From Spizellomyces punctatus DAOM BR117 (lineage: Eukaryota): DNA of 64,000 nt. The translations under genes and the position numbers were made by a program. Location of the stretch: NCBI GenBank assembly GCA_000182565.2, contig KQ257452.1; one strand, 5' to 3'. The notes below the pieces were generated by a model. That model did no database searches. It was not told where the DNA came from and saw nothing but the letters and a program-made list of their open reading frames with translations. Each line of letters starts with the position of its first letter. Position 1 is the first letter of the stretch. Shown one piece after another: positions 26,780-27,501 of the stretch.

Positions 26780-27501
26780 GCTAAGCTACTACTAGGCAAT
26801 TATACACGCAATACGTAACGGTTGGTTTTAACCGGATAATTGCCCACCACCACACACGGTCCCTACTAGGCCTTGATCTGGAACTCTTGATGGCATTGAA
26901 GCCAGACTCTTGCATCCAGGAGCGAATCGACTGGGCAGCGTCACAAGCCAGAGGATGTTCAGTGACAAGGCTTGGAGACTACAAAAAAATGCATGTCAGC
27001 GACAGAATAATATGAAAAGAGATGATGCCATTGGTACATACCAACCAAGCTCAACTAATGTGGCAGCATAATAGTAGGTTTTGTTATCGGATCCGATTGG
27101 TTGCCGCTGGTTCTGATCACGGTTGCTGTCGGGCGGTCGAGGTCCTCGGCACCACCACATCTGCATGCTCATGGTTGACCGAGTCGCAATGAGGTTGCAA
27201 TGTGGGTCGCTATGAGGTTGCAATGGGTCGCGATGAGCGTTGGGCAGATGGTTTGAGAGTCGAGGATGGGTAAAGAGGAAAGAGGGAAGAGAGGGCAGGT
27301 CCCCTTTTATAGACCTTGAGTGTGGCAAAATGGGGTCCAGCTGAAAAGAAAAAAAAACATTACATTAGCATGCCACACCGCAGTTTGGAGAACATTAGCA
27401 GGACGCTTTCAGCGATGGGGGTTCTGATTATGCAATATAATTAACCGGATTGATCCGGATGATAATGGATACTAGTGCCATTTACTGTCAGCTCCACACT
27501 A
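26707..27501 (-). mobile_element. Non-autonomous Spu-1-like Fanzor 'ghost' element, 795 bp including terminal TA
   Basis: 30-bp TIRs with 26/30 match: TAGTGTAGAGGTGACAGAAACTGGCACTAG (26707-26736) and the reverse complement of 27472-27501; TA at both ends; no nuclease or transposase ORF. Confidence 0.8.
26828..27172 (-). CDS. Candidate micro-gene MSMQMWWCRGPRPPD... with a 63-nt intron (26979-27041)
   Basis: CTATAAAA at 27312-27305; GTATGT donor, GCTGAC branch point, T-rich TAG acceptor; motif shared with copy A. Confidence 0.45.

Follow-up and report, generated by a model that had tools for sequence, protein, structure and literature searches.

A covarying three-way-junction RNA beside the omegaRNA scaffold of a ghost Spu-1 element in Spizellomyces punctatus

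A three-way-junction RNA (3WJ) is encoded directly upstream of an omegaRNA-type scaffold in the chytrid Spizellomyces punctatus DAOM BR117, on a 64,000-nucleotide (nt) stretch of contig KQ257452.1 (assembly GCA_000182565.2; the whole stretch is called the window hereafter). Two copies are present on the minus strand, copy B at 26793..26846 and copy A at 9920..9977, and in both of them the 3WJ is a genuine, independently folding RNA domain. In the transcribed unit of copy B, which appears to be a Fanzor-less "ghost Spu-1" element, the 3WJ is located in exon 2, between the frame-variable end of a short open reading frame (ORF) and the scaffold. It is very probably a selected RNA structure that belongs to the precursor of the ghost omegaRNA. 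The explanation as a whole, in which the 3WJ serves as a cis module of this precursor, is given about an even chance, and the evidence on which it is weighed against four alternatives is described below.

Fold and covariation of the three-way junction

The 3WJ of copy B consists of the stems P1 (11 base pairs, bp), P2 (5 bp, loop AAAACC) and P3 (3-5 bp, loop UAUUG), and that of copy A of a P1 of 13 bp with a bulged G, a P2 of 5 bp (loop AGAAC) and a P3 of 3-4 bp. The junction linkers (C, 2 nt and GU) are equal in length in the two copies. On the 5' side, the domain is flanked by GUGGUGG (26847..26853 in copy B and 9978-9984 in copy A), and on the 3' side by GUAGUAG (26786..26792 and 9913-9919), all on the minus strand and without any difference between the copies; the 3' flank together with the preceding UA reads UAG UAG UAG. 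The sequences, linkers and flanks of both copies had been laid out in an earlier annotation of the window (the original prediction) and proved exact on re-reading. When each copy was folded with its 7-nt flanks, the minimum free energy (MFE) structure and the centroid were identical with the fold proposed there (-21.3 kcal/mol for B and -21.5 kcal/mol for A), and the 3WJ stayed in both structures when exon 2 was folded through the flank (289 nt for B and 261 nt for A).

Twenty base pairs are common to copies A and B, of which 17 are unchanged and none is broken. One pair has changed on one side only (A-U to G-U), and two have undergone double compensatory changes, U-A to C-G in the pair that closes P1 at the junction end and C-G to U-A in P3; the compensatory changes foreseen at the junction and in the small hairpin are thus both found. 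Copy A also has an extra GCU/GG (an insertion of 3 nt and 2 nt), which adds two more pairs (C-G and U-G) and the bulged G. The comparison is based on a structure-guided alignment in which B is gapped by 3 nt following UGGGC and by 2 nt ahead of GCCUA, and the P2 loop of A by 1 nt; from this alignment, RNAalifold recovers the 3WJ. The alignment made by MAFFT itself shifts the 5' strand of P1, and RNAalifold therefore returns the structure without P1 on that alignment. In a chance test, in which seven random substitutions were placed on copy B in 400,000 trials per setting, the combination of no broken pair with at least two double changes arose in 0.024%, 0.083% and 0.22% of trials at transition shares of 0.33, 0.67 and 0.86, respectively, a result that is partly circular in that the structure was derived from the same two sequences being tested. 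No further copy of the 3WJ is present in the window beyond A and B, and a metagenome scan with a 20-base pattern of the 3WJ returned two loci (L001 and L002), both of them chance matches without P1 or P2.

Comparison of the neighbourhoods of the two copies with BLAST gave four conserved islands only, and most other sequence of both units is unalignable. The 3WJ island of 76 nt (A 9910-9984, B 26783-26853) has an identity of 81.6% (E = 9e-13). The others are a promoter and 5' untranslated region (5'UTR) island (A 10219-10261, B 27243-27290; 79%), a 28-nt island coding for the peptide WCRGPRPPD (A 10153-10180, B 27127-27154; 96%), and an island comprising UUAGCUUUUCCG and a hairpin (A 9858-9882, B 26760-26784; 84%). 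Among the eight pairs of the stem-loop 1 (SL1) hairpin of the scaffold, three have changed on both sides and two on one side between A and B, none is broken, and the loop UUGUCGC is invariant; such covariation arose in 0.012-0.057% of simulated trials. The 3WJ is conserved on a par with SL1 and placed directly 5' of the scaffold, and both points favour its assignment to the omegaRNA precursor.

The ghost Spu-1 element and its transcript

The genome of S. punctatus was reported to contain 42 Fanzor loci and 134 "ghost Spu-1 elements," in which a conserved sequence of ~550 nt lies between 30-nt inverted repeats and lacks the Fanzor (Fz) ORF (Saito et al. 2023, PMC10432273). According to the main text of that report, the omegaRNA scaffold is a 75-nt region across the 3' repeat that comprises two stems plus a linker and features U5, C6 and C7, of which C6 pairs with G20 of SL1, and a guide of 14-15 nt comes from the flank. 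SL1 of the SpuFz1 omegaRNA is described as having seven base pairs and as being followed by a single SL2 (PMC11423790). The SPu-1 transposon is described as an element of ~2,100 bp with terminal inverted repeats (TIRs) as well as presumed TA duplications, which codes for a Fanzor protein of 633 amino acids (aa) (Bao and Jurka 2013, PMC3627910).

Copy B has an omegaRNA-type scaffold of ~75 nt at 26706..26780 on the minus strand (fold z = -3.30), the features of which match the published ones: a CUUUUCC lead, an SL1 of 7-8 bp (loop UUGUCG), a linker, and a long stem 2 into which the 3' inverted repeat is incorporated. Copy A shares the lead, SL1 and the base of stem 2 in its scaffold at 9813..9878 on the minus strand (fold z = -5.61), where stem 2 comprises 11 bp with a 4-nt loop. 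When C1 is set at 26780 (B) or 9878 (A), U5, C6, C7 and G20 all match the published SpuFz1 omegaRNA; SL1 is formed by 7 bp and an additional U-G pair, with G20 as the final base of its loop, and one further stem extends to the end of the repeat. The strings TTTTCCG and TTGTCGC do not occur in the main text of PMC10432273, so that the match rests on the described features, and with these the scaffold predicted just downstream of the 3WJ agrees. The distance from the 3WJ to the scaffold is 12 nt in copy B and 41 nt in copy A. The linker of copy A contains an additional small hairpin (GUGG-UUCAAU-CCAC), and the scaffold of this copy is without the inner ~22 nt of the inverted repeat, resembling the trimmed "minimal" omegaRNA designs described in the papers.

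The inverted repeats of copy B, at 26707..26736 (right end, 3') and 27472..27501 (left end, 5') on the minus strand, are exactly 30 nt long and agree at 26 of 30 positions; such matches occurred in 0 of 100 shuffles. Upstream of the 5' arm (27501, sense strand), the sequence is C-A-A, which departs by one extra A from the CA described for ghost elements, and TA is found on both sides of the GTGT...ACAC core, as described for SPu-1 (PMC3627910). The distance between the repeats is 735 nt as compared with the published ~550. No Fanzor ORF was found near copy B on the minus strand, where the longest stop-to-stop frame is 122 aa (26996-27364), and no TnpB or Fanzor Pfam domain was found in the 30 ORF translations of the window that were scanned (29 distinct ORFs). 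On the basis of the scaffold features, the 30-nt repeats, the TA flanks and the lack of a Fanzor ORF, copy B can be classified by sequence as a ghost Spu-1 element. Copy A, for which repeat matching found no inverted-repeat arm, looks like an immobile or divergent relative.

The 3WJ is located ~60-140 nt away from the right end of an element bounded by TIRs. This position could also be explained if the conserved entity were the DNA itself, i.e., a subterminal hairpin or cruciform acting as a signal for Spu-1-type transposition. Against such a signal, which is considered highly improbable, copy A retains the 3WJ without recognisable inverted repeats and relies for its pairing on G-U wobbles, which form on the transcribed strand only, and the RNA is very abundant. 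The original prediction had stated that G-U pairs form on the minus strand only; a strand asymmetry of the fold is borne out by copy A alone, whose plus strand does not adopt it (z = +0.59), as the plus strand of copy B folds too (z = -2.26).

Transcription was followed with reads placed on 26200-27700, mainly raw 60-nt RNA reads from a run labelled with the same species (X20, of which ~6% was sampled); three other runs (X7, X10 and X11), kept as contigs, were also placed. A TATA box, TATAAAAG, is located at 27304..27311 on the minus strand of copy B and is followed by the conserved pyrimidine-rich island at 27243-27290, and copy A has a counterpart, TATATAAA, at 10275-10282 (minus strand) with the island at 10219-10261. 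Copy B contains a GT..AG intron of 63 nt at 26979..27041 (minus strand), whose joint (26978/27042) is covered in X20 by 927 reads with the first mate on minus and 5 on plus, and is also found in contigs of X7, X10 and X11; because read depth persists inside the intron, it is only partly spliced. In copy A, a candidate intron of 79 nt (10020-10098, minus strand) is supported by splice signals in the sequence only. The transcript was assigned to the minus strand because the first mates of the unit reads lie on minus, in contrast to those of a plus-strand neighbour gene, which lie on plus, and because the intron ends read CT..AC on the plus strand.

Read depth per bin was 101 in the 5'UTR, ~1,300-5,300 in exon 1, ~1,300-1,600 in the intron and 13,180 in early exon 2, and continued without interruption through the 3WJ (bins of 30,164 and 43,695) into the scaffold (17,155). 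The peak minus-strand depth of 43,695 compares with ~100-170 for the neighbour gene, where depth runs from 2 to 168 and rises to its 3' end. This rise shows that the X20 library is strongly 3'-biased, and the 5'-to-3' rise within the unit therefore supports no conclusion. Within ~100 nt beyond the right inverted repeat (26660-26706), depth falls to 362 in the first bin and to 16 in the next; transcripts stop within ~50 nt past the repeat, where the guide should end. The ghost-element gene thus has a TATA promoter of its own from which it is transcribed, a single intron that is spliced in part, and the scaffold and guide at its end, and the transcript family is among the most abundant RNAs of the sampled run. 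The longer RNA polymerase II (Pol II) transcript that the original prediction had supposed is accordingly supported by the TATA box, the spliced intron and the depth through the 3WJ into the scaffold.

Several further features of the unit were observed in this region. Signals within the element may govern 3' end formation of the precursor. At 26706, A replaces G (plus strand) in 226 of 303 reads, which would lengthen the repeat by one pair. At 27422-27502, inside the left repeat, a minus-strand depth of ~55 and contigs of two other runs were recorded, nearly all with the same 4-10 differences, and owing to these shared differences they are attributed to related copies elsewhere rather than to this locus. 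By eye, the spliced junction of copy B (27042-27049 joined to 26971-26978, minus strand) would read as a 5-bp hairpin, CUUGG-UUGUCU-CCAAG, whose loop resembles the SL1 loop UUGUCG; this loop and the P3 loop UAUUG of the 3WJ may be SL1-like decoys or may be due to chance.

In total, 169,118 of 26,394,413 records (0.64%) were placed, and since 159,501 of them fit only in part, the reads derive mostly from paralogues and provide a view of their variation. Among the variants listed, the 3WJ positions that vary in at least 10% of reads are 26840 (A-U to G-U) and 26828 (P2 loop). Two soft-clipped versions of P2, ..CCGGUUAGAA|CAACCG.. in ~11,353 reads and ..CCGGUUUAGAAGAG|CCG.. in ~11,451 reads, keep the pairing when paired by hand. 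The linker that joins the 3WJ to the scaffold is not the same in all paralogues, as seen from read ends at 26785/26786. In SL1, the variants A13>G, present in 47% of reads, and U22>C, present in 42%, affect the two partners of one pair, and the listed variants of the peptide island, 27137 (CGA>CGC) and 27134 (CCG>CCA), are both synonymous third positions.

The three-way topology, the invariant loop and flank nucleotides, and the location directly 5' of a small functional RNA would also be expected of an undescribed class of self-cleaving ribozyme, or of a stall similar to that of exoribonuclease-resistant RNAs (xrRNAs), which would make the 5' end of a stable, omegaRNA-bearing 3' RNA. Such an activity is considered very unlikely, because Rfam gives no match within the 3WJ at E up to 10, the junction strands are just 1, 2 and 2 nt long, no pseudoknot partner is visible by eye, and the reads show neither a pile-up of starts nor a depth step at the 3WJ edges (bins of 26,623, 30,164 and 43,695; the upstream edge is at 26846-26853). 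At gathering score, Rfam matched only one tRNA in the whole window; at E up to 10, it gave nothing in 26600-27400 and two weak matches in 9700-10400, both outside the 3WJ. The original prediction had seen no hammerhead or hepatitis delta virus (HDV) core and had suggested a check with covariance models; run here, this check agrees, and none of the known self-cleaving ribozymes in Rfam (hammerhead, HDV, twister, pistol, hatchet and others) matches at the 3WJ. A tRNA-like structure was not found at the 3WJ by ARAGORN or Rfam, the sole tRNA of the window being elsewhere. Small nucleolar RNA (snoRNA), U3, the Alu domain of the signal recognition particle RNA and telomerase RNA were ruled out, as none of them gave an Rfam match. 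A small intron in place of the 3WJ, by analogy with the gene model SPPG_09019, which leaves out the 3WJ, was also rejected, since no such joint is listed among the reads, though joints with 5-15 reads are.

Reading frames and a possible role in omegaRNA maturation

The coding part of exon 1 is located at 27042..27172 on the minus strand in copy B (ATG at 27172, MSMQMWWCRGPRPPD...YYY...) and at 10099..10195 on the minus strand in copy A (MRILLWCRGPRPPDKYNITPCKCCYYY...). An N-terminal peptide, M(R/S)xxxW(W)CRGPRPPD followed by DKxNITPCKCCYYY or DSNRDQNQRQPIGSDNKTYYY, is kept across the copies, of which the copy A subfamily is Cys-rich. Because this peptide is conserved and some of the differences between copies are synonymous, the transcript of the short ORF is probably translated. 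The ORF of copy B (P0002) matches SPPG_09412 of S. punctatus DAOM BR117 with 91% identity, and SPPG_09407 is its cluster mate. An exhaustive search of 1.84 billion representatives yielded five matches, three S. punctatus paralogues and two unrelated Ig-repeat proteins; it added SPPG_08830 and SPPG_09019 and gave no relatives outside S. punctatus. Four gene models cover such loci. A word-based protein search returned S. punctatus proteins only for the copy B ORF, and with the copy A frame it found no relatives of 52-168 aa or of 30-51 aa, the ORF proteins have no match among protein families, PDB or Atlas entries, and no literature record was found for the peptide strings.

The end of the ORF differs from copy to copy. 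SPPG_09412 ends in ..EFQIKA*, ~20 nt before the 3WJ, and window copy B ends with a UAA in the P2 loop (26830-26828). SPPG_09407 reads through the 3WJ as ..WWWAIIRLEPTVTYCVYNCLVVA, ending in ..NCLVVA with Cys at -5; SPPG_08830 reads it in a different frame from SPPG_09407 as ..WWWAIIRLEQPLRIACIIA, ending in ..PLRIACIIA; and window copy A, with its candidate intron, reads it in a third frame as ..VVVGASYPVRTTVMYCMCNWA, ending in ..YCMCNWA. A continuous frame with Cys at -4, as in a CaaX-like prenylation box, is therefore present in SPPG_08830 (CIIA) and, provided that the candidate intron is used, in window copy A (CNWA), which makes two copies of five; it fails for window copy B, SPPG_09407 and SPPG_09412. 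Given that SPPG_08830 and copy A stop at the same GCC-UAG, that two of the three frames are open through all of exon 2 of copy B (65 and 55 codons), and that many transposon copies may be defective, the region could instead be the C-terminus of a small protein including the CaaX-like box, with pairing as a by-product and with many copies frameshifted and dead. A protein of this kind is considered improbable. The frames in which copy A and SPPG_08830 read most of the 3WJ differ, and their peptides are unrelated; the stops in copy B and SPPG_09412 and the displaced Cys of SPPG_09407 do not suit it, the box would account for four codons and not for the 5' strand of P1, P2 or P3, and the lack of any protein match offers it no support. 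Pairing, not frame, is preserved by the positions of the indels (3 nt, 1 nt and 2 nt) that distinguish A from B. As the five copies differ in the frame through the 3WJ and in the ORF end, the constraint appears to act on RNA pairing rather than on protein, and the comparison indicates that the 3WJ is kept by base pairing and not by one reading frame.

Two other protein readings were rejected. A relic of the Fanzor C- or N-terminus found no PDB match to SpuFz1 from any frame of the 3WJ region or from the ORF proteins, a negative whose weight is limited in that the presence of a SpuFz1 chain in the PDB set used is unconfirmed. A mating-pheromone precursor in a P/R locus was excluded, there being no STE3 or other relevant Pfam family nearby.

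The same ORF ends allow for another role of the 3WJ within the mRNA. It lies at the variable end of the ORF, the stops of all three frames fall within it or within the next 12 nt, its flanks GUGGUGG and GUAGUAG are invariant, and the transcript is probably translated. The 3WJ could therefore be a structure of the 3'UTR or ORF end that serves the small ORF and is bound by a host protein, which would set translation, localisation, nuclear export or half-life, with the GUAG repeats as protein sites. GUAG motifs are linked to Nrd1/Seb1-type proteins. An mRNA-level element is regarded as unlikely, though the least so of the alternatives, and it is opposed by the fact that, apart from the 3WJ, strong conservation on the 3' side is found only in the omegaRNA scaffold immediately downstream.

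In the case of a cis module of the omegaRNA precursor, the 3WJ may separate the translated 5' part of the transcript from the scaffold, so that the scaffold could fold independently of the variable upstream mRNA. It might act as a structured 5' cap, or as an entry or stop point for a nuclease. Endonucleolytic cleavage or 5'-to-3' decay of the mRNA body could then leave a stable 3' piece, from which trimming would yield the Fanzor-protected omegaRNA. In line with an advantage of structure on the 5' side, a 5' MS2 stem-loop or 5' extension was reported to raise the activity of the canonical omegaRNA (PMC10432273). That the 3WJ acts in omegaRNA maturation or stability is possible, at a probability somewhat below even. 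More tentatively, and at the risk of being wrong more often than right, ghost elements could, instead of being inert relics, be dedicated, highly expressed guide-RNA genes in which a spliced and translated Pol II mRNA has its 3' end converted to the Fanzor omegaRNA, with the 3WJ as a eukaryote-specific maturation signal for nuclease entry or exonuclease stop; the WCRGPRPPD peptide may be a second product of this precursor.

Several observations weigh against the explanation as a cis module. The 3WJ is not unusually stable in thermodynamic terms: 5 of 200 shuffles of copy B fold as well as the native sequence (z = -2.11), and for copy A the figure is 31 of 200 (z = -0.96). Only two complete alignable 3WJ sequences are available, and the chance test uses the same two from which the structure was derived. 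ORFs overlap the 3WJ in several copies, and C-x-x-A is found at the same UAG in two of five. Cross-mapping from paralogues means that expression per locus is far below the sum. No sites where many molecules begin or end were found in X20 on 26200-27700, in a 3'-biased library of long RNA with 60-nt reads that would miss small RNAs. The variable spacing to the scaffold, together with the other paralogue linkers, argues against a ruler-type cut that makes omegaRNA nucleotide 1. A construct of the Fz ORF and 3' IR regions is reported to give rise to the ends of the canonical omegaRNA in yeast, and 75-nt ghost scaffolds alone to be active in human cells (PMC10432273), so that the 3WJ is dispensable for Fanzor activity as such. 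With regard to the processing element supposed in the original prediction, which was to release the omegaRNA 5' end, the longer Pol II transcript is therefore upheld, and the release finds no support in read ends or in the spacing (12 versus 41 nt).

Known systems, the rest of the window and significance

The unit of copy B resembles the published ghost Spu-1 elements in its 30-nt repeats, the lack of a Fanzor ORF, the flank-derived guide and its many genomic copies. It differs from them in the longer distance between repeats, as does copy A in having no repeats, and in the extent of conservation, since the main text of the report names only the repeats and the omegaRNA region as strongly conserved and mentions no promoter, short ORF, intron or upstream structured element (PMC10432273). 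The words "intron" and "Pol II" are absent from its main text and legends, and its supplementary alignments may already show the block. With SPu-1 as described (PMC3627910), the unit shares terminal inverted repeats and the TA beside the GTGT...ACAC core of copy B; it differs in that the 633-aa Fanzor ORF is missing and the cargo has no PDB-detectable similarity to SpuFz1. In the texts searched, no literature on the 3WJ, on the ghost cargo or on native omegaRNA transcription and processing was found apart from Saito et al. 2023. The ghost loci as such, with their omegaRNA, are already known, and what is new here is the 3WJ as an accessory module and the Pol II mini-gene (TATA box, short ORF M..WCRGPRPPD and 63-nt intron) within a ghost element.

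Elsewhere in the window, sequences 100% identical to each other are found at 1-1557 and 37513-39069 and at 39009-39308 and 39839-40138, near gaps of 100 N at 1558-1657 and 39739-39838; identical duplicates beside N gaps suggest an artefact of scaffolding or assembly rather than a biological feature. At 46640-48020, dispersed direct repeats form a cluster that contains families of 74-129 nt with 63-98% identity and spacings of ~173-593 nt, and Tandem Repeats Finder calls no tandem array there. A tRNA-Leu gene (anticodon TAG) at 61395-61476 on the plus strand is the sole match of Rfam and ARAGORN in the window.

Guide RNAs also arise from longer transcripts in other systems. TnpB processes its own mRNA into omegaRNA, in that the nuclease itself cuts and the scaffold overlaps the ORF end. 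The ghost element is similar in that the guide RNA derives from the 3' part of a longer, protein-coding transposon transcript, and differs in having a separate 3WJ ahead of the scaffold and an ORF whose small peptide is unrelated. xrRNAs, such as those of flaviviruses, are three-way junctions that pseudoknots close into a ring, with 5' ends accumulating at the 5' edge, and snoRNA precursors have entry stems for RNase III. The likeness to these lies in a structured element on the 5' side of a stable downstream RNA, whether of Pol II or viral origin; unlike them, the 3WJ matches no Rfam family, a pseudoknot was not detected in it, and 5' ends do not accumulate in the reads.

The findings bear on how eukaryotic Fanzor systems make guide RNA in their native host. 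In at least one Fanzor-less ghost element, a covarying 3WJ ahead of the scaffold is combined with an intron, a conserved short ORF and a Pol II promoter that belongs to the element. Control of omegaRNA yield by the 3WJ, if it occurs, would account for the supply of guides in trans from many ghost loci and would offer a natural cassette for the Pol II expression and maturation of Fanzor guides. Should the 3WJ be a maturation signal, no native cis-element would have been described before it for the biogenesis of omegaRNA in a eukaryote, and if it instead serves the small ORF, ghost elements would have a second function.

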